A stretch of 64,000 nucleotides of DNA from a plasmid, in the sequence record OW967251.1; one strand, given 5' to 3'. The notes under the pieces were generated by a model that saw nothing but the letters and a program-made list of their open reading frames with translations, was not told the DNA's origin and did no database searches. Numbering within the stretch: the stretch's first letter is position 1; each line of letters starts with the position of its first letter. The position numbers were made by a program, and so were the translations under genes. Shown in pieces: positions 6,592 to 37,068 of the stretch.

Positions 6592-8316
6592 TGGGTCTTC
6601 CGCAACTTAGGTGGAGTTGTTTAAGCCAGAGGGCTCATGACTCGTCGTCGCAGTAACTCGAAGCCAGCTCGACCGTACATCTGCCGTTTCAGCATCTTCA
6701 GGCGGTTTACATGGCCTTCCACAACGCCATTACTCCATCTGCTGCTTATCGCTTCGTGTATTGCTGTTGCATCCGCTTCCATACCGGCCGCAACACGCTG
6801 AAGGTCAATGAGCCCACTTTGACTGACGTCAGAGAACCATTGATTTAACTGCGATTTATTCTTCGTTTTCAACATTCGATAGAAGTCGAGCGACAGCTGT
6901 TGCGCCATTTTCAGTTGCGGTTCTTTCTGGCACATCGATTCGATGAAGCGGGATGCATAGTTTTCTTCTCCTCTGATCATTCGCCAGGGCATTAACCAGC
7001 GGCTTACTCTGGATGCTGAGGGGAGTCGAACTGGGGCGATAACGGGACTGTTAACCTGCTTACGCCACTTAGCCACAGCATCCCTGACCGTCGTTTCGCT
7101 CCCGGTGAAGCCAGCATTTACCATCTCCCGCCATAGCTGCCCGGCATTATGGTTACCGTTTATCCGTTGTTCTTCCAGCCATTCCTGCCATGGTTCAAGT
7201 AACCCGGGTCTGGGTGGCTTAGTTGATATTTCAGGGAACGCTTTTGACTGTATCCACCGGCGAACCGTCACCCGGGACAGTCCGGTGATACGCGATATTT
7301 CTCTTATCCCACAACCCTTTTTATGAAGAGAGTCTACCTCAGCCCAGCGCTGATACCGTTTGTCACGTTGCTCTCGTTTAATACGTTCAGGGCGACGTAA
7401 CGTTGACGTTGGCACCAAAGACGCTTCAGCATTCTGTTTTTTGGGGGGATAACTCGGTGGCCACCAGTCGTATCAATGGCATGTGTCTGTACATCATGCG
7501 CTCCAGCGCATCACCAATATTCTTCAGCAGATGCCAGCGATCGGCCACCTGTATTGCCTGCGGTGCACCATCGCGAGCAGCTAACGCATAGATCCCCCCA
7601 CGATCGCGTGAGACGACCTGTATTTCTGGGTATTTTTTGAACCATGCCGCCAGAGTGCGTTGCTCCCGGCCTGGCAGTAACACCAGGGGGCGATGGGTAT
7701 CAAGATTTACGATCAGTGTGCCGTACCTGTGGCCCCGATGCCATGCCCACTCGTCAATACCAACATGCCTGGTCCGGTTCTCTGTTTGTTCCGGAGCTTG
7801 AACCACTCTGCGCAGTAAAGTATCCGCGCTGATCTGTATTCCTGAAGCTACTGCAGCTCGTCTCCCTGCTTCACCACCTGCGATAAGCCCCAGCTGATGC
7901 TGCAGATTTTTCAGCAATGCAGAAGACTGCTGCTGCGGGCCTGCAAAGGGAGCAAGCGATTCAGCAAAAATTTTACGTGAACAGGAAGGGTTACGACAGT
8001 ACCAGTGCCGGATGGCGAAGACTAACCAGAGGGCCTGGCCTGAGCATGGAAGATGCTGTACTCGCCTCCGCCGGCAACTATGAACAGAATGACTGTGCGT
8101 GAGGCACTCAGGACATGATGCCGTTTTACGTGTGGCGCGGAGATGGAGGGTTATTCCATCAGTACCAGTAATCTGTCGGCAGGTTTGCCACCCGCGCGGT
8201 AGCTGTAAAAGTCTCTTAAGTGAGGCCATTTTGTTATACATAACTTAAAACAGCTTAGATCCTTGTTAACTAAAAAGTTTCATCAATTTTTGTCCACCTA
8301 AGTTGCGGAAGACCCA
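6592..8316 (-). mobile_element. ISL3-family insertion sequence (about 1.7 kb) with a disrupted transposase
   Basis: Perfect 24-bp terminal inverted repeats TGGGTCTTCCGCAACTTAGGTGGA at 6592-6615 and, reverse-complemented, at 8293-8316. They enclose two consecutive minus-strand ORFs with ISL3-type transposase sequence. No matching target-site duplication was found. Confidence 0.75.
6621..8241 (-). pseudogene. ISL3-family transposase split into two ORFs (7426..8241 N-terminal part, 6621..7418 C-terminal part)
   Basis: Total about 536 aa, split between 7418 and 7426. N-terminal zinc-ribbon/HTH region and C-terminal DDE region typical of ISL3 transposases. Could instead be a sequencing error. Confidence 0.65.
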
Positions 8317-8812
8317 CTTTTTACCCGTTGTTGACAGCGGAGCACACCTTAACCCCGTGGTAAGCCTGATTTTTTATCTGATCGGGGCCTGCTCTTTCAG
8401 GGCAACCATGAATTACATCGTGGCTCAGTTGTTAGGGGCCGGCGCTGCTGCACTGTGCCTGAAGGCTGTCTTTGGCCACTCCCTGCTGGCCGGGGTGACC
8501 CGGGTCCATATGGGGGTATCACTGTACAATGCCTTTTTCATCGAAGGTGTCATGACTTTTATTCTGATTATGAGCATCCTAACGACCAGAAACCCCGCGA
8601 TTATCAGCATTGCTGTTTTTCTTGATGCTTTTATTGGCGGGCCGCTGACGGGGGCAAGCATGAACCCGGCCCGTAGCTTCGGGCCGGCATTGGCCATGGG
8701 ATACTGGGATAATCAGTGGCTGTACTGGGCCGCTCCGCTGTCTGGCGGGCTTGCAGCTGTTGCGTGCTGCCAGCTGTTTATGCCGCAACTGAAGTCACCC
8801 TCACCGGAATAA
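8317..8812 (+). pseudogene. MIP-family aquaglyceroporin (AqpS/GlpF-like) lacking its N-terminal ~55 residues
   Basis: Both MIP signature boxes are present (SGAHLNPVVS and SMNPARSFGPA), but the first box sits only ~15 aa from the ISL3 right IR. The ORF-track start lies inside the IS inverted repeat. No N-terminal continuation was found on the other side of the IS. Confidence 0.6.
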
Positions 8813-8828
8813 AGTCCCTTCCAGGACA

Positions 8829-8862
8829 GAATGCCTCTGATGAACAGAGGCATTCTTTTTTT
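8829..8862. terminator. bidirectional rho-independent terminator between the aquaporin fragment and the convergent GNAT gene
   Basis: GAATGCCTCTG/CAGAGGCATTC hairpin followed by T7. Confidence 0.45.
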
Positions 8863-9389
8863 CAGCAACCCACTGTCCGGCTACGCCTTTCCAGAATGAG
8901 AACATCTCTCCATTTTCCGTTCATTTCACCCACATTTTCCCGGCAGCCGACTTCCCTGAATCCCTGGCTGCGATGTAAAGCAACACTGGCCTGGTTTTCC
9001 GGAAAGATGCCAGCAAGTAGCGTCCAGAAACCCGCACTTTCCGAGCCCTTTATCAGCCCGGAGAGCAAAGCCCTGCCCGCGCCTTTTCCCTGAAAATGAG
9101 TACTGACATAAATGCTCAGCTCTGCGACACCGCGGTATGCATGCCGGCGGGAAAAAGGAGATAGCGCAGCCCATCCCACCACTCTGTTATCAACAGTGGC
9201 GACGTAGCGGCAGTCCTGAAGATGCCCTTCATTCCATTCCAGCCACTCAGGTGCTGCGGTCTGAAAGGTGGCGTTCCCTGTTGCAATTCCTTCCTGATAA
9301 ATTTCCCTGACTGCACACCAGTCCTCTTCGTGCATTTTTCTAATGATGATCTCTGCCATTTCTCTGTACCGTATGTTTGCTGTATTCAT
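8862..9389 (-). CDS. GNAT N-acetyltransferase, phosphinothricin-acetyltransferase/ArsN1-like
   Basis: 175 aa. PAT-family motifs (RHAYRGVAE, QGKGAGRALL, WRDVLILER) are shared with the second GNAT at 13616. Located in an ars context. Confidence 0.6.
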   Translation of the reverse strand: MNTANIRYREMAEIIIRKMHEEDWCAVREIYQEGIATGNATFQTAAPEWLEWNEGHLQDCRYVATVDNRVVGWAALSPFSRRHAYRGVAELSIYVSTHFQGKGAGRALLSGLIKGSESAGFWTLLAGIFPENQASVALHRSQGFREVGCRENVGEMNGKWRDVLILERRSRTVGC

Positions 9390-9690
9390 AGGCAGTCAGA
9401 AAACGAGCCTGCCTGGGCTTCCCGGCGGCGGGACATAATGCGCCCGTCAGCAAAGGATGAAGGTCATTTTATTTTTAGCGGGAATCGGTTTCTACTGTGA
9501 CGGATTCATATGCATTTTTCCATATATATTGTGACGTACCTCATTTCTGAGAGGTATAAACACCGATCATGTTTTCTCCATGCCGCGTAAGTGTAAGGCC
9601 CCGGAGATGGAGTCATATTATGGACGTGGTTGCGCTCACTATATATTTCTATTATTCTGGAAATATAGAAATAAAATTACGAGGAATGGG

Positions 9691-10017
9691 ATGGAGCTGA
9701 AAATCGCCGCGATGGTGCTGAAAGAACTTGGCCACACCACTCGTCTCGATATTTACAAAACACTCGTTAAGGCCGGACGTCAGGGACTGCCCGTGGGGGA
9801 ACTGCAGCAACATCTCGCCATTCCGGCCTCGACCCTGAGTCATCATCTTTCATCGCTGATATCCGTCTCACTGGTTCGCCAGGAAAGGCAGGGGAGAACA
9901 CTGTTCTGCCACGCCTGTTATGACAACCTTGCTGCATTGATTGCCTTTCTGACAGAAGAGTGCTGTGCAGACGAATATGCCCCGCCTGGTTTTATGTCAC
10001 CACCGGAGAAAAAATGA
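9691..10017 (+). CDS. arsR: ArsR/SmtB-family metalloregulator, atypical (no CVC in the DNA-binding helix; C-terminal Cys cluster)
   Basis: HTH ArsR fold ([13 protein letters not shown]...LSHHLSSL). Cysteines sit near the C-terminus (CHACYD, EECCADE) rather than in the ELCVCD position. RBS AGGAA lies before the ATG at 9691. The ORF-track start at 9580 is probably spurious. Confidence 0.7.
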
Positions 10018-10727
10018 TTGCTGAACTGAAAAATGTTGTTCCTGAGCTGTTTGATACAGGTCGCACCGGGGTCCGCCTGGGTGTAAAGACAGTTGACCAT
10101 CCTCCCCGGATCCTGATGTTGTACGGTTCCGTTCGAGAGCGGTCCTACAGCCGTCTGGCCACCGAAGAGGCTGCCCGGCTTCTTACCGCCATGGGTGCGG
10201 ATGTCCGCATCTTTAATCCTTCCGGTCTCCCTCTGCCGGATGATGCAGCGGATACGCATCCCAGGGTTATGGAACTTCGCGAAATGGTGCGCTGGTCTGA
10301 AGGGATGGTATGGTGCTCTCCTGAACGTCATGGTGCGATGACCGGCATTATGAAAGCCCAGATTGACTGGATACCACTATCAGAGGGCGCAGTACGCCCT
10401 TCTCAGGGAAAAACCCTGGCCGTCATGCAGGTCTGCGGAGGCTCCCAGTCTTTCAATGCGGTAAACCAGATGCGTATTCTTGGCCGCTGGATGCGAATGA
10501 TTACTATACCTAATCAATCCTCGGTAGCGAAAGCCTGGCAGGAGTTTGATGAAGACGGACGGATGAAACCATCCCCGTACTACGACCGTATTGTGGATGT
10601 AATGGAAGAGCTGATGAAGTTTACCCTGCTGACCCGGGAGTATGCAGCGTATCTCGTCGATCGCTACAGTGAACGTAAAGAGTCGGCAGAAGCACTTTCC
10701 CGGCGGGTGAATCAGAGCAAAATCTGA
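10014..10727 (+). CDS. arsH: NADPH-dependent FMN reductase ArsH (organoarsenical oxidase)
   Basis: Conserved [15 protein letters not shown] and [12 protein letters not shown] motifs of ArsH. ATGA overlap with the arsR stop. Confidence 0.85.
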
Positions 10728-10735
10728 GGGCTGGT

Positions 10736-11281
10736 ATGAGTGATGTAACGGCATTCAACAACTGCATGAGCGTGTTCTGGCAACAGCATGAAGCAGAGCT
10801 CTCCCGTTTTCTGGCATCAAGGACAGGCGATCGGGAGCAGGCAGCCGATCTGCTTCAGGAAGTCTTCCTGCGCGCCCGGGCCTGTGCAGACCGCTTCTGT
10901 GAAATGGAGAACCCGCGGGCCTGGCTGTACCGGACGGCGAGGAATCTGCTGACGGATGAGTACCGTGCCGCCAGAGACGTCGTGGTGCTGGAAGACGAGA
11001 TCCCGCTGCCTGACGCCTTCCATGAGGCGGTTTCAACGCTGGAGATTTGCCTGCCTGAAACCCTGCAGGCCTTACCTGACGAGGAAAGATGGCTGATAGA
11101 AGAGGCCGATCTGAACCGGCGTCCCCAGCAGCGCCTGGCCGACGAGCTGGGGATCACGCTGACGGCGTTTAAGTCGCGCCTGCTTCGCGCCCGGAAACAT
11201 CTGAAGAAGACGATGACGGAACTCTGCCAGGTGGAAGTGGATGATGCGTCTTCCGTCTGCTGCCATAAAAAAATGGATTAA
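10736..11281 (+). CDS. ECF (sigma-70 family, group IV) sigma factor with a short Cys-containing C-terminal tail
   Basis: Sigma region 2 (DLLQEVFLRA...WLYRTARNLLTDEYR) and region 4 (LPDEERWLIEEADLNRRPQQRLADELGITLTAFKSRLLRARKHL) are recognisable. C-terminal tail is ...CQVEVDDASSVCCHKKMD. No adjacent anti-sigma ORF. Confidence 0.7.
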   Translation: MSDVTAFNNCMSVFWQQHEAELSRFLASRTGDREQAADLLQEVFLRARACADRFCEMENPRAWLYRTARNLLTDEYRAARDVVVLEDEIPLPDAFHEAVSTLEICLPETLQALPDEERWLIEEADLNRRPQQRLADELGITLTAFKSRLLRARKHLKKTMTELCQVEVDDASSVCCHKKMD

Positions 11282-11356
11282 CCGCGCATCTTTTTCCCGC
11301 CTCACTCGTTTACCTCAGTGTAAAGCCCCATCATTCAACACTGAGGTAAACAGTCC

Positions 11357-11719
11357 ATGTCAAAAATTGAGATCTTTGAAGCCGCAGGCTGCTGTGCGAC
11401 CAGCAGCGTCGTGGTCAGCGATGAAGCCGTCAAATGGAACGCCAGCGCCGAATGGGCGAAAAAGCATGGTGTGAATATTCAGCGTTACAGCCTGGCAAAG
11501 AACCCGCAGCAGTTCCTGAATACGCCCGTCATCAGGGCCTTCCTGAACACGTCAGGAATGGAGTCCCTTCCCGCTACCCTGCTTGACGGCCAGCTGGTGA
11601 TGGCGGGCAAGCTCCCGTCCCGGGAAGATATCGCCCGCTGGGCCGGTATTTCCCTCACGCAGGACTGGAATGAAGACAGCACGCAGCCGCGCTGCTGCAG
11701 CATTCCCCGTATGCCTTAA
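11357..11719 (+). CDS. arsD: ArsD-like arsenic metallochaperone/repressor, divergent
   Basis: Aligns with the canonical ArsD at 17729 (FEAAGCCATSS vs FDPAMCCSTGVC; LPATLLDGQLVMAGKLPSREDIARW vs LPLLLLDGETVMAGRYPKRAELARW). The third Cys (Cys18) is missing. Confidence 0.65.
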   Translation: MSKIEIFEAAGCCATSSVVVSDEAVKWNASAEWAKKHGVNIQRYSLAKNPQQFLNTPVIRAFLNTSGMESLPATLLDGQLVMAGKLPSREDIARWAGISLTQDWNEDSTQPRCCSIPRMP

Positions 11720-11737
11720 TCCCGGAGGAGCTCAACA

Positions 11738-13494
11738 ATGACGATGCCATTTTTACAGAATATCCCCCCGTTTATCTTCTTCACCGGCAAAGGCGGCGTG
11801 GGGAAAACCTCTCTGGCCTGCGCGACGGCGGTATGGCTGGCTGACCAGGGCCGGAGAACGCTTCTGGTCAGTACCGATCCGGCCTCCAATGTCGGTCAGG
11901 TCTTCAGCCAGACTGTGGGCCACCGGATCACTGGTATCCGCACCGTGGAAAACCTTGCGGCAATGGAAGTTGACCCGATGGCGGCCGCGCAGGCTTACCG
12001 CGATCGCGTGCTCGATCCTGTTCGTGAACTGATGCCTGCCGATGTCATCAGCAACATTGAAGAACAGCTTTCCGGTTCATGTACCACGGAGATCGCGGCG
12101 TTTGATGAATTTACCGCGCTGCTGACCAGTCATGAACTGCGCGAAAAATATGATCATATCGTCTTTGATACTGCACCAACCGGACACACCATCCGTATGC
12201 TTGAGCTGCCGGGCGCCTGGAGCGGGTACCTCGATGCACATCCTGATGCTGCGGCGAACCTCGGCCCTCTGGTGGGGCTGGAGAAACAACAGGACCAGTA
12301 CGCTGACGCAGTGAAAGCCCTCTCTGATACGGCACTCACGCGACTGGTTCTGGTTGCCCGCGCACAGGCGTCGACCCTGAAAGAGGTCTCCCATACCCAC
12401 GAGGAGCTGTCGGCTATCGGTCTGCAGCATCAGCACCTTGCCATCAATGGCGTGCTGCCTCCCTTTGCCGGTGAACAGGATCCGCTGGCGCACAGTATTC
12501 TGGCGCGGGAGGAACGGGCCTTACGGGCCATGCCTGAAAACCTCGCGCATCTTCCCCGGTCGATGCTGTATCTGAAGCCTTTTAATCTGGTTGGTCTGGA
12601 AGCCCTGAGGGCGCTGTTTACAGAGAGCACACTTGTTCTGCCGGATCCGGGAGCCACGCTCACGACGGTCGATTTACCGGAGCTTGCCTCCCTGGTGGAG
12701 GACCTCAGCCGAGCGGGAAAAGGGCTGGTCATGACGATGGGAAAAGGGGGCGTGGGGAAAACCACGGTGGCGGCTGCGGTCGCGGTCTCGCTGGCCAGAC
12801 GCGGTCATAAAGTCCACCTGACCACCTCCGATCCGGCAGCCACCTGTCTTACACCCTGGATGGCTCGCTGCCAGGCCTTCAGGTCAGCCGTATCGATCCA
12901 AAAGCAGAGACTGAGCGCTATCGTCGCTTTGTGCTGGAAAATCAGGGAAAAGGTCTGGATGAAGAGGGACTGGCGGTACTGGAGGAAGATCTCCGTTCCC
13001 CCTGCACCGAAGAGATTGCCGTGTTTCAGGCATTCTCCCGGATCATCAAAGAGGCCAACGACCATTTTGTCATTATAGACACTGCGCCCACCGGGCATAC
13101 GCTGCTGTTGCTGGATGCAACCGGGGCCTATCACCGGGAAATGGTGCGCCAGATGGGGCAGGCTCACGATCACGTGATAACGCCAATGATGCAGCTGCAG
13201 GATCCGGAGAAGACCAGAGTCATTATCGTGACGCTTGCCGAAACCACGCCGGTACTGGAAGCGGCCGGGCTGCAGCAGGACTTACGCCGGGCCGGGATTG
13301 AACCCTGGGCGTGGGTCATCAATAACAGCCTCGCGGCCGCGAAGCCGTCCTCCCCGTTCCTGGTCACCCGTGCCCGTCGCGAACTGCCGCTGATCGACGA
13401 CGTTGCCGGGCATTATGCACAGCGCATTGCCCTGACGCCACTGCTGAAGGACGACCCGGTAGGCGTGGACCTGCTGGCTGAAATGGCGGGCTGA
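11738..13494 (+). pseudogene. arsA: arsenite-stimulated ATPase ArsA with a frameshift near 12841
   Basis: Two Walker A motifs (GKGGVGKTS, GKGGVGKTT) and DTAPTGHT signature motifs. Reading frame switches at GATCCGGCAGCCACCTG; one extra C would restore ...DPAAHLSYTLDGSL..., matching the intact ArsA at 15960. Split into ORFs 11738..13078 and 12931..13494. Confidence 0.75.
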
Positions 13495-13615
13495 CAGGTG
13501 GGGCGACGCCCTACCTCCACTTAAAACATTTCCTTATACAGGTCATAAGATGAAGCGCTTAATCTGCCGTCGCGAATTCCGGTAGTGTGTCAGTCAACGT
13601 CACAGGAGTCATACA

Positions 13616-14152
13616 ATGCACATTATCAATGCTGAAGAGCAGCACATTCCCGCCATACGGCGCATTTACGCCCATCATGTCCTGCACGGCACAGGCAGCT
13701 TCGAGACGGAACCCCCGGACACGCAGGAAATGCTTGCCCGGGTGAAAAATGTTCAGTCACGTGGATTTCCCTGGTATATCGCCCTGCAGGGGGAGACGGT
13801 CATCGGCTACTGTTATCTCTCCCGCTACCGCGAACGCCATGCCTACCGGTTTACGGTTGAAAATTCGGTGTACATCGATCCGGCTTATCAGCGGCAGGGG
13901 GGCGGAAAAGCCTTACTCGATCATGCCTTAACATGGGCCCGGTCTCAGGGATACCGCCAGATGATAGCGGTTGTGGGGGACAGTGCGAACGTCGCGTCTG
14001 TAGCGCTGCATCTTCGCGCCGGATTTACTGAAATCGGCACGCTGAAGGACATCGGTTTCAAGCATGGCCGCTGGCTGGACACGGTGTTGCTGCAGCGTCA
14101 GCTGGGAAAAGGGAGCTGTACGCTGCCGGACAGTCCGGTACCCGGACGCTGA
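13616..14152 (+). CDS. GNAT N-acetyltransferase, ArsN1/phosphinothricin-acetyltransferase-like
   Basis: 178 aa. PAT-family motifs (RHAYRFTVENSVYIDP, QRQGGGKALL) match the paralogue at 8862. Position at the end of the ars operon is typical for arsN1. Confidence 0.6.
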   Translation: MHIINAEEQHIPAIRRIYAHHVLHGTGSFETEPPDTQEMLARVKNVQSRGFPWYIALQGETVIGYCYLSRYRERHAYRFTVENSVYIDPAYQRQGGGKALLDHALTWARSQGYRQMIAVVGDSANVASVALHLRAGFTEIGTLKDIGFKHGRWLDTVLLQRQLGKGSCTLPDSPVPGR

Positions 14153-14159
14153 GGCAGGA

Positions 14160-14182
14160 GAAAGGGGGCATCGCCCCCTTTC
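14160..14182. terminator. bidirectional terminator between the two convergent ars clusters
   Basis: AAAGGGGGCATCGCCCCCTTTC perfect hairpin. Confidence 0.5.
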
Positions 14183-14184
14183 GG

Positions 14185-14610
14185 TTATTTCAGCCGTTTC
14201 CCTGCCTCATCTACTACTTTCTCGCCGTCTTCCTTAGCAAATGCGCCTTTTTGCGCATCCGGAAGAATATCCAGTACCACTTCGGAAGGGCGGCACAGAC
14301 GCGTTCCCAACGGTGTCACCACAATCGGACGGTTAATCAGGATCGGATGCTGAAGCATAAAATCGATTAACTGATCGTCAGTAAACTTATCTTCCTCAAG
14401 CCCCAGTTCTTCATAAGGCTCGACGTTTTTGCGCAGCAAAGCCCGGACTGAAATGCCCATATCTGCAATGAGTTTGACCAGCTCATCGCGTGACGGTGGA
14501 TTTTCAAGGTAATGAATAACGGTCGGTTCATTACCACTGTTGCGGATCATCTCCAGCGTATTACGCGACGTGCCGCAGGCCGGGTTGTGATAAATGGTGA
14601 TGTTGCTCAT
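14185..14610 (-). CDS. arsC: arsenate reductase ArsC (glutaredoxin-coupled, R773 type)
   Basis: MSNITIYHNPACGTSRNTL N-terminus with catalytic Cys12. 141 aa. Confidence 0.9.
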   Translation of the reverse strand: MSNITIYHNPACGTSRNTLEMIRNSGNEPTVIHYLENPPSRDELVKLIADMGISVRALLRKNVEPYEELGLEEDKFTDDQLIDFMLQHPILINRPIVVTPLGTRLCRPSEVVLDILPDAQKGAFAKEDGEKVVDEAGKRLK

Positions 14611-36364: not shown

Positions 36365-37068
36365 TCAGACCCGGCTGTTACCGGCCACGCCTGTCTGGGT
36401 AGGGAACGAGTGGTGGAACAGTCGGTTCCGTCGGGCGTTAACCTGCGGAACAGAAACCCATGCGACTTTCAGGTCGCACTGCCGAAATAATACTGGTTTC
36501 CCTTCTTGGTCTGGTGCATTTCCGGGTCGCGCTTGCCGTCCTTGTTCTTGGTCGAACTGGGCGCATTGATCAGCGTTGCATCGACGATGGTGCCCTGGCG
36601 CAGCGACAGGCCGCGGTCGCCCAGAGCCATTGATGACAGCGAGGATGCCGGCCGCCAGCTCGTGTTTCTCCAGCAAGCGGCGGAAGTTGAGAATGGTGGT
36701 TTCGTCGGGGATGCGCTCCAGGTTCAGCCCGGCAAACTGGCGCAGGATCGTGGTTTCGTACAGCGCTTCCTCCATCGCTGGATCGCTGTAGCCGAACCAG
36801 TTCTGCAGCAGATGCACACGCAGCATCGCCATCAACGGGTAGGCCGGACGGCCACCTTCACCCTTCGGATAATGTGGCTCGATCAAAGCAATCAAGCCCT
36901 TCCACGGCACCACCCGATCCATCTCGATCAGGAACAACTCCTTGCGGGTTTGCTTGCGCTTGCCAGCGTACTCGGCGTCGGCGAAGGTCATCTGCTTCAT
37001 CGGGAAACTCGGTGGGTGGGGGCGCGGTATTTTGCCAAATCAGAAAGTCTTTTTCAGAGTTTCCCTAG
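36365..37068 (-). pseudogene. 5' ~700 bp of an IS5-family element (IS5 group) with frameshifted, 3'-truncated transposase
   Basis: MKQMTFADAEYAGKRKQTRKELFLIEMDRVVPWKG... follows IS5-like transposase sequence, then shifts frame after AVIN. Similarity ends after ...KKGNQYYFG. The left end (CTAGGGAAACTCTG...) is identical to the fragment at 41788. Confidence 0.6.

Follow-up and report, generated by a model that had tools for sequence, protein, structure and literature searches.

A SigZ-like ECF sigma factor as the predicted internal regulator of a second arsenic resistance operon on an enterobacterial plasmid

The regulation of arsenic resistance is textbook repressor biology, built on ArsR, with ArsD acting as a chaperone and weak repressor. 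In a 64,000-nucleotide (nt) stretch of plasmid DNA (sequence record OW967251.1; hereafter the window), a gene at positions 10736 to 11281 on the + strand lies among arsenic resistance (ars) genes and encodes a sigma factor of the extracytoplasmic function (ECF) type. The reading that we favor, with a probability of roughly 0.7, is that this ECF sigma factor operates independently of any anti-sigma factor and is the internal regulator of a second ars operon, arsR2-arsH-sigma-arsD2-arsA2, through a circuit of three steps. In the first step, arsR2, arsH, and the sigma gene would be cotranscribed from a promoter guarded by an ArsR2 operator, and trivalent arsenicals would free ArsR2 so that the sigma factor is made. 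The sigma factor would then guide RNA polymerase to a predicted promoter at 11286 to 11311, leading to expression of arsD2-arsA2 and, in this plasmid, of arsN1b. Finally, cysteines C10 and C55 in the sigma2 domain, C105 and C164 in the sigma4 domain, and the residues C175-C176-H177 in the C-terminal tail would put the activity of the protein under the control of a thiol-reactive ligand, with As(III) or a trivalent organoarsenical as the likeliest candidate, comparable to the activation of CorE2 by metal through its Cys-rich extension. Gene spacing and a conserved palindrome suggest the first of these steps, comparative evidence points to the second (the promoter motif is unique in the window, conserved in relatives, and follows the target operon), and the third is plausible by analogy.

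That positions 10736 to 11281 encode an ECF sigma factor is, in our judgment, virtually certain. The open reading frame (ORF) starts with ATG and gives a protein of 181 amino acids (aa), with the sequence first quoted for it. An original prediction, made from the DNA letters, had recognized sigma-70 regions 2 and 4 in this ORF, and the Pfam profiles agree, matching Sigma70_r2 (PF04542) at residues 15 to 80 (E = 4e-13) and Sigma70_r4_2 (PF08281) at residues 105 to 156 (E = 2e-9). There is no third domain, and the protein has the sigma2 and sigma4 domains alone that define the ECF group (group 4). The generic ECF model of NCBIfam, TIGR02937, scores 70.6 bits against a cutoff of 42.9, and a PDB profile search returned ECF sigma factors exclusively, with SigL at the top (6dv9_F, E = 2e-23). 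The alternative raised at the outset, that this might be a LuxR-type or other helix-turn-helix protein, therefore fails in all three databases. The gene is under purifying selection: its ratio of nonsynonymous to synonymous substitution rates (dN/dS) against diverged copies is 0.09 to 0.11, next to 0.03 to 0.06 for neighboring genes. Because of this ratio, and because the gene is found at 99 to 100% identity in ∼950 plasmid records, it is no chance ORF. Everywhere in the plasmid records its annotation is merely "sigma-70 family RNA polymerase sigma factor."

What the sigma factor would recognize was sought by aligning, for 41 loci, the stretch that runs from the sigma stop codon to the gene after it. 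A bipartite motif emerged with an essentially fixed spacing between its two halves and the consensus TGCATCCTTTT-N10-TTCGTCT, or, from 53 unique instances, T-GCATCC-TTTT-n-C-N7-TTCGTCT-n-C. ECF promoters typically consist of a −35 element followed by a T-tract, a spacer of ∼15 nt, and a −10 element of the CGTC type, and by sequence the motif has this architecture. The exact pattern GCRTCYTT-N13-CGTY has a single match in the 64 kb of the window, at 11286 to 11310, which lies 5 bp past the stop codon of the sigma gene and leaves 47 nt to arsD2. With a weight matrix built from the loci on which it was scored, this site reaches 38.4 bits, compared to 15.3 bits for the next best site in the window and a maximum of 18.3 bits in shuffled windows. 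Among 100 fetched loci, 61 contain the exact pattern, and 60 of these contain it exactly once. Of 86 related loci, 60 contain such a site, and resampled sequence contains none; likewise, 470 kb of related loci holds 61 sites of at least 20 bits, compared to 0 in 10 resamplings.

The position of the motif varies with the genes that follow it. Where an operon of an ArsP-type permease and a Thioredoxin_3 protein (ArsP-Trx3) diverges from the sigma gene, the motif lies on the opposite strand and faces that operon (L070, L073, L076, and L081; L numbers denote individual loci). Where DNA has been inserted after the sigma gene (L020, L059, and L083), the motif still stands directly 5′ of arsD2 or ArsP, and in Rhodoferax (L016) it is found 5′ of an operon of ArsP, a metallo-beta-lactamase-fold (MBL) gene, Trx3, sigma, and a cation diffusion facilitator (CDF) gene. 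By these comparisons, the position of the motif is tied to the target operon and not to where the sigma gene ends. It is conserved across relatives whose sigma proteins share 31 to 100% identity with that of the window, and we consider it very likely that the motif is the promoter of this sigma factor and that the genes behind it are its regulon. The ECF classification predicted promoters 5′ of ECF genes on the assumption of autoregulation, and a motif downstream could therefore have been missed.

The original prediction held that the sigma factor drives part of the cluster and called for ECF-type motifs to be sought at several genes. This is strongly supported for arsD2, which has the conserved motif directly 5′ of it, and not for arsN1b, the divergent GNAT gene arsN1a, or arsR2, where candidate promoters were rejected; all other sites in the window score 15.3 bits or less, inside the range of shuffled sequence. 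Two further candidate targets with one mismatch, at 9201 to 9225 (− strand) and 9843 to 9867 (+ strand), lie inside coding regions, and the 5 such matches found compare with 2.75 expected by chance. Autoregulation was rejected as well: most loci have no motif directly 5′ of the sigma gene, the exceptions being L016 and L099, in which sigma lies downstream of its targets.

The string of genes to which the sigma gene belongs is laid out in the window as follows.

9644 to 9673: operator-like palindrome, TATTTCTATTATTC / GAAATATAGAAATA, ∼17 nt 5′ of arsR2 (inverted-repeat search)
9691 to 10017, + strand: arsR2, first gene of the string, encoding an ArsR/SmtB-family protein of 108 aa with a C-terminal vicinal EECC (NF033788, 62 bits, cutoff 55; RefSeq start)
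10014 to 10727, + strand: arsH, NADPH-FMN oxidoreductase type (TIGR02690, 401.5 bits, cutoff 292; synteny)
10736 to 11281, + strand: ECF sigma factor of 181 aa, SigZ/ECF238-like, with C10, C55, C105, C164, and C175-C176-H177 (profiles and alignment)
11286 to 11311, + strand: predicted promoter, with −35 element GCATCT (11286 to 11291), T-tract (11292 to 11295), and −10 element TCGTTT (11306 to 11311) (motif and weight matrix)
11308 to 11351, + strand: predicted arsD2 leader stem-loop, arms 11308 to 11321 and 11338 to 11351, 14 bp perfect (RNA fold)
11357 to 11719, + strand: arsD2, encoding an ArsD-family protein of 120 aa with C12-C13 kept (PF06953, 100 bits; NF033727, 80.6 bits, below its cutoff of 90)
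11738 to 13494, + strand: arsA2, an ArsA-type ATPase paralogue, a pseudogene here (TIGR04291 matches both halves)
13616 to 14152, + strand: arsN1b-like GNAT acetyltransferase gene (NF040504, 147 bits, below its cutoff of 210)
14160 to 14182, + strand: terminator-like hairpin, the only one on the + strand between arsR2 and the convergent arsC

As first described, the sigma gene stands between arsH and an arsD-like gene, at distances of 8 nt and 75 nt, respectively, and arsR2 and arsH overlap by 4 nt. The palindrome at 9644 to 9673 is the sole block conserved 5′ of arsR2 across diverged loci and is a plausible candidate for the ArsR2 operator controlling arsR2-arsH-sigma. (On a Salmonella plasmid, locus L002, it is present in two copies.) With arsR2 and this conserved palindrome heading the operon, expression of the sigma factor is probably ArsR controlled. 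The original prediction had set the sigma factor against the classical control of ars operons by ArsR and ArsD; that contrast does not hold, as the classical repressor is there, at the head of the same string. In this plasmid lineage arsN1b is probably the last gene of the unit, and it is missing from most chromosomal versions of the operon.

A partner that would hold the sigma factor inactive was not found. Neither Pfam nor NCBIfam detects an anti-sigma gene beside it, the neighbors in the window being ArsR, ArsH, ArsD, ArsA, and GNAT genes, which bears out the earlier statement that no anti-sigma-like ORF adjoins it. Next to the window gene there is also no cotranscribed partner of the ZAS type (an HxxxCxxC or transmembrane protein), and ORFs of at least 60 aa that overlap the sigma gene are exclusively alternative-frame and unconserved. 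Anti-sigma-type neighbors are similarly absent from more than 80 related loci, which have ars, permease, or thioredoxin genes instead.

This neighborhood fits the family to which the protein appears to belong. The top NCBIfam family is SigZ (TIGR02959), with 138.3 bits over residues 15 to 179, tail included, and the runner-up family scores 74 bits. Both SigZ equivalog models fall short of their curated cutoffs (138.3 versus 168.65 bits for TIGR02959; 119.4 versus 212 bits for NF007215), so the protein is a SigZ relative and no equivalog. With its best NCBIfam match serving as a proxy, SigZ being a stated member of ECF238, we class it as a SigZ/ECF24-like member of that group. ECF238 merges the older ECF24 and ECF44, houses both SigZ and CorE2, and is marked by a C-terminal extension of ∼20 aa with Cys and by the absence of an anti-sigma factor (PMC7826278). 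The window protein shows both marks: its neighborhood is free of anti-sigma genes, and its last sigma4 helix ends at C164 and is followed by a short Cys-bearing tail of 17 residues. At an E value of 1e−30 or lower, the family comprises 855 representatives of 50%-identity clusters. The PDB search found no solved structure of an ECF238-type member, the nearest being that of Mycobacterium tuberculosis SigL.

The protein is not of the strict CorE type. Strict CorE-like members require a CxC between sigma2 and sigma4.2 and a C-terminal Cys-rich domain of 21 to 50 aa (PMC4937300, PMC6851896); in CorE2 this domain is 28 aa long and has six Cys, and the CxC is essential (PMC4937300). These CorE hallmarks, notably the linker CxC, are valid for the former ECF44 only and not for the remaining ∼85% of ECF238 (PMC8999054). 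None of 138 family representatives has a CxC in the linker, where the window protein has the single cysteine C105 (EICLPE), and its tail of ∼18 aa has three Cys and one His in place of a domain with about six Cys. Lacking both the linker CxC and the six-Cys domain, it falls outside ECF44. The initial description of the protein as CorE-like is thus accurate for the broad ECF238 group that includes CorE2 and not for ECF44, and the proposed alignment of its tail with CorE-type Cys-rich domains (28 to 38 aa, six Cys) finds no counterpart.

The cysteines themselves were counted in 84 distinct sigma sequences from related loci and in the broader set of 138 representatives. The Cys-containing extension reported initially is real, the tail CQVEVDDASSVCCHKKMD bearing C164, C175, C176, and H177. 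Its C175-C176 pair, which had received most of the initial emphasis, is found in 44 of the 84 sequences, including all enterobacterial ars-operon copies, and four other cysteines are near-universal: C10 (72/84), C55 (73/84), C105 (80/84), and C164 (83/84). In the broader set C105 is present in 114 and C164 in 130 of the 138 representatives, and C10 together with C55 marks a subclade of ∼30% of them, namely, that associated with ars and ArsP genes. Both of the region 2 cysteines first pointed out (ARACADRFCE) exist, and only C55 is conserved; C50 is peculiar to the Klebsiella plasmid lineage and is replaced by His or Gln elsewhere. The conserved cysteines may come together in one site shared by sigma2 and sigma4, or they may pair up within each domain. 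An AlphaFold2 model from a 40-sequence alignment is confident for the sigma2 and sigma4 domains and has low confidence for the tail and for how the domains pack.

Comparison of the loci indicates how far the association with arsenic extends. The segment from 8300 to 14200 recurs at 100% identity in many Klebsiella pneumoniae IncFIB/IncFII plasmids and at 99% or more in ∼1,000 plasmid records, where it adjoins pco/sil and arsRDABC operons. Sigma copies with 77 to 82% protein identity occur on unrelated Salmonella and Enterobacter plasmids and on Hafnia, Cedecea, Citrobacter, and Enterobacter chromosomes. The order arsR2-arsH-sigma-arsD2-arsA2 is constant among these copies, and operon order is retained on unrelated plasmids and chromosomes over the range of 57 to 82% sigma identity. 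In its chromosomal form this operon is convergent with arsC-arsB-arsA1-arsD1-arsR1. In a clade at 57 to 59% identity (Cedecea neteri and metagenomic contigs), sigma-arsD2-arsA2 or arsR-sigma…arsD2 is preserved. A contig search with the single sigma protein returned close enterobacterial copies and three irrelevant distant sigma factors only.

Among relatives at 38 to 47% identity, the motif is usually followed by a permease of the ArsP_1 family (PF03773) and then by a small thioredoxin-like protein of the MTH895/ArsE family; Mangrovitalea, Rhodoferax, and Vibrio have such sigma-ArsP_1-Thioredoxin_3 modules. Several of these modules lie among arsenic genes. ArsD-ArsA (L075) or ArsR-ArsC-ArsH (L086) stands immediately 5′ of the module, ArsC flanks it in L083, ArsA flanks it in L041, L046, L048, L074, and L090, and on a Klebsiella plasmid (L005) there is a complete arsRCDABC operon in divergent arrangement. 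ArsD/ArsA, ArsC, ArsH, or ArsR genes are adjacent in L005, L044, L074, L075, L083, L086, and L090. At 33 to 34% identity, the motif precedes an ArsM arsenite methyltransferase gene in L097 (363 bits, cutoff 263) and is found just 5′ of an ArsI/CadI-family gene (155 bits, cutoff 116) that itself precedes sigma in L099. Since the sigma-promoter pair precedes ArsP_1 with an ArsE-like thioredoxin, ArsM, or ArsI, the family would be a sigma-based regulator of arsenic genes, probably organoarsenical ones. Many members, for example, those of Mangrovitalea (L015) and Vibrio (L017), have no ars or ArsR-family gene within ∼7 kb. In such loci no regulator other than the sigma factor is conserved along with the module; the GntR- and LysR-family regulator genes within ∼3 kb of the Mangrovitalea sigma gene are unrelated.

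The arsD2 and arsA2 products suggest the same theme. In every sigma-linked copy compared (the window, L006, L008, L019, L024, and L029), ArsD2 is without Cys18 and ArsA2 is without Cys172, and the ArsD and ArsA of the ordinary operon retain all three As(III) ligand cysteines. Two thiols are what would be expected for a methylated trivalent arsenical, and ArsD2 and ArsA2, each one ligand cysteine short, are possibly a chaperone and an ATPase specific for organoarsenicals. Taken together with ArsH, ArsP, ArsM, ArsI, and ArsN1, the two-thiol proteins lead us to infer that organoarsenicals are a common theme of these loci.

Whether the sigma protein senses an arsenical directly is a separate matter, for which we see somewhat less than an even chance. 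Self-gating is plausible: cysteines are conserved, no anti-sigma factor is encoded nearby, CorE and CorE2 set a precedent, and there are sigma-ArsP-Trx3 modules that stand alone. A broader and more tentative proposal is that the window protein is the first representative of a widespread family of sigma factors that act as one-component arsenical sensors, in which the four-Cys signature, with or without the Cys-Cys-His of the tail, binds trivalent arsenic, probably as methylarsenite [MAs(III)] or other organoarsenicals. Binding would switch the protein to a form that recognizes TGCATCC-TTTT-N10-TTCGTCT and would turn on organoarsenical genes, namely those for an ArsP-type permease with ArsE, for ArsM, for ArsI, or for the ArsD2/ArsA2 pair, which may be specific for MAs(III).

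Several observations weigh against the proposed circuit or parts of it, and they bear on four other explanations. An ArsR gene precedes the sigma gene, so that arsenic control could be wholly transcriptional, with the sigma factor constitutively active. In such a cascade, which we regard as unlikely though worth serious attention, the cysteines would be structural (a zinc site, for example, or stabilizers of the fold), the response to arsenic would come solely through ArsR2, and the sigma step would add a delay or amplification before arsD2-arsA2 is expressed. This would suit the conserved operator-like palindrome at the operon head, the 8 nt between arsH and sigma with no terminator between them, the ArsR-family gene found 5′ of sigma in many distant loci, and the occurrence of C105 and C164 well outside the arsenic-linked subclade, a distribution that structural residues would be expected to have. 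The Cys-Cys pair of the tail is also disfavored as a universal sensor, because roughly half of the subclade lacks it, and the AlphaFold2 model gives no metal-site geometry, its predicted local distance difference test score falling below 50 from residue 171 onward and its predicted template modeling score being 0.44. Yet in L015, L017, and other loci without an ArsR or ars gene near the module, sigma is the sole module-linked sensor left, C10 and C55 are specific to the subclade that is associated with ars and ArsP genes, and the cysteines of CorE and CorE2 are required for metal-dependent activity (PMC4937300). These points argue against a pure cascade.

The effector might alternatively be thiol or redox stress or another soft metal (Zn, Cd, or Cu), with arsenicals acting indirectly and the linkage to ars genes in the Enterobacterales being secondary, which we think improbable. 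CorE responds to Cu and CorE2 to Cd/Zn through their Cys-rich extensions (PMC4937300, PMC6851896), the thioredoxin-like partner suggests thiol chemistry, and the partner permease is below the cutoff for all named NCBIfam families, its best matches being SaoE and a Cu/Zn efflux family. CDF cation-efflux genes lie beside sigma or in an operon with it in L016, L061, L066, L035, and L046, and in a minority of loci CDF, MBL, TauE, or MMPL genes take the place of the usual partners (L016, L061, L066, L036, and L100), so that the effector may not be arsenic in all members. Set against this, all neighboring genes in the window are ars related, and ArsH, ArsD, ArsA, ArsC, ArsM, and ArsI recur as neighbors or predicted targets over the whole range of identity. 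As for the promoter, its assignment is purely comparative and the weight matrix comes from the loci on which it was scored; moreover, the motif overlaps the 5′ arm of a leader hairpin conserved in the enterobacterial clade. It might then be some other cis element (for example, the operator of a repressor, part of an RNA leader, or a promoter for sigma-70), with the true sigma regulon lying in trans. We give this very little credence, because the motif is asymmetric and bipartite, with fixed spacing, a T-tract, and a CGTC-type element in an ECF-like architecture, because 60 of 86 loci with this sigma family have it, generally as a single copy that faces the adjacent operon, and because no sigma-70-like promoter and no Rfam match were found at the site.

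The circuit may, lastly, be partly decayed in the Klebsiella plasmid lineage, since arsA2, its main target, carries a frameshift: loss of 1 nt near 12840 splits the gene into ORFs at 11738 to 13078 and 12931 to 13494; chromosomal versions (L006, L008, and L024) encode an intact protein of 585 aa. Were the whole module an inactive relic carried along with the sil/pco/ars island, which seems to us quite unlikely, one would also understand the truncated aquaporin gene next to transposase ORFs and the plasmids that keep only sigma residues 1 to 38; the ∼950 identical copies are clonal and uninformative on selection. Contrary to such a relic, sigma, the promoter motif, arsD2, arsH, arsR2, and arsN1b are all intact, and the dN/dS of sigma against diverged copies is ∼0.1. 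A sigma-regulated second ars operon remains the reading that we prefer.

Several known regulators offer points of comparison with the window sigma factor. In ArsR repressors of the AfArsR/SpArsR type, a C-terminal Cys-Cys pair and a nearby Cys bind As(III) or MAs(III). The window sigma factor is likewise a small, ars-encoded, DNA-directed regulator with a C-terminal Cys-Cys and further cysteines, but its fold and mechanism are unrelated, and it would recruit RNA polymerase rather than leave DNA as a repressor does. For SigZ of Bacillus subtilis, we know of no link to arsenic genes. SigZ (ECF238 subgroup 9) is similar in being small, with C-terminal Cys, no anti-sigma factor, and no known function (PMC7826278). 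CorE and CorE2 of Myxococcus xanthus (ECF44) are also ECF sigma factors without an anti-sigma factor whose adjacent targets are metal detoxification genes; cysteines of their C-terminal extension and of the sigma2-sigma4 junction are needed for activity, and they are not (fully) autoregulated (PMC4937300, PMC6851896). They differ in that the window protein has a single linker cysteine (C105), a tail of only ∼18 aa, and two additional conserved sigma2 cysteines (C10 and C55), and in that it sits among arsenic genes whereas they sit among Cu, Cd, or Zn genes. OrbS, the iron-starvation ECF sigma factor of Burkholderia cenocepacia, carries an on-board Cys-rich C-terminal metal sensor and has no anti-sigma factor (PMC9023288), but it belongs to another ECF group, is inhibited by iron where the window protein would presumably be activated, and has no arsenic context.

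An anti-sigma-independent ECF sigma factor with regulatory cysteines is thus already known; what is new here is the linkage to arsenic, the distinct cysteine signature, and the downstream, nonautoregulatory promoter with its consensus. The literature searched yielded no functional work on this protein or on any ECF sigma factor encoded in an ars operon, although the ECF238 supplement may already tabulate the context. The sole mention found is an "RNA polymerase sigma-70 subunit" listed in passing in an arsenic island of Cronobacter (PMC12757443). If the proposed circuit is correct, arsenic resistance would have a positive, sigma-based layer of control atop its ArsR repressors, one not described in the literature searched, and the uncharacterized SigZ-like majority of ECF238 would for the first time be assigned a concrete regulon, a promoter motif, and a class of candidate ligands. 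The gene is carried on more than 1,000 sequenced plasmids of Klebsiella, Enterobacter, Salmonella, and Escherichia coli together with silver, copper, and antibiotic resistance, which makes it easy to test in standard hosts and relevant to coselection by arsenicals, for instance, feed additives of the roxarsone type. The compact sigma-promoter pair could also serve as an orthogonal, possibly arsenic-gated expression switch or as a biosensor part.

Between the predicted promoter and arsD2, the leader RNA is predicted to fold with −23.6 kcal/mol (z = −6.2). Its 5′ arm begins inside the predicted −10 element, and its 3′ arm buries the Shine-Dalgarno sequence GAGG at 11343 to 11346. Each of the 9 distinct enterobacterial sequences preserves the core of the stem, and one compensatory pair was seen. 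An Rfam scan of 9300 to 14300 gave only subthreshold chance matches and no family for this leader. A role as a terminator was rejected: no U-tract follows the hairpin, and the terminator scan made no call there. We speculate that read-through transcripts would form the full stem, whereas transcripts initiated by the sigma factor would start within the 5′ arm and be translatable.

Some variation was seen around the modules. ArsN1-like GNAT genes flank that of the window on both sides, an A-type gene at 8862 to 9389 (− strand, 147.6 bits) and the B-type gene at 13616 to 14152 (+ strand, 147.3 bits); both score below their NCBIfam equivalog cutoffs (170 and 210, respectively) and are absent from most chromosomal islands. 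On the Salmonella megaplasmid of L002, an ArsP_1 (PF03773) permease gene at 6716 to 7753 (− strand) diverges from arsR2, in the position taken in the window by arsN1a and the truncated aquaporin gene. In L016, L061, L066, L080, and L092, an MBL gene is placed between the ArsP_1 permease gene and the thioredoxin-like gene, and in L016, L061, and L066 a CDF cation-efflux gene follows this MBL-containing module; the effector may differ between subgroups.

Traces of rearrangement are present as well. The aquaporin (MIP) ORF at 8303 to 8812 is N-terminally truncated, covering profile positions 65 to 219 of 222, and beside it are two transposase-like minus-strand ORFs (6621 to 8241), which suggests that an insertion sequence (IS) cut the left end of the ars island. 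A remnant of the sigma gene comprising only codons 1 to 38 is found on several E. coli, Shigella, Klebsiella, and Citrobacter plasmids, where in most cases it lies under an annotated ArsA-type ATPase gene. On one E. coli plasmid (L101; NZ_CP054225.1), the remnant sits beside a Tn3-family transposase and a resolvase, and arsD2 and the motif are deleted. Elsewhere in the window, an identical 39-mer occurs at 36783 (− strand) and 42034 (+ strand) in opposite orientation, a repeated element that probably represents IS copies.

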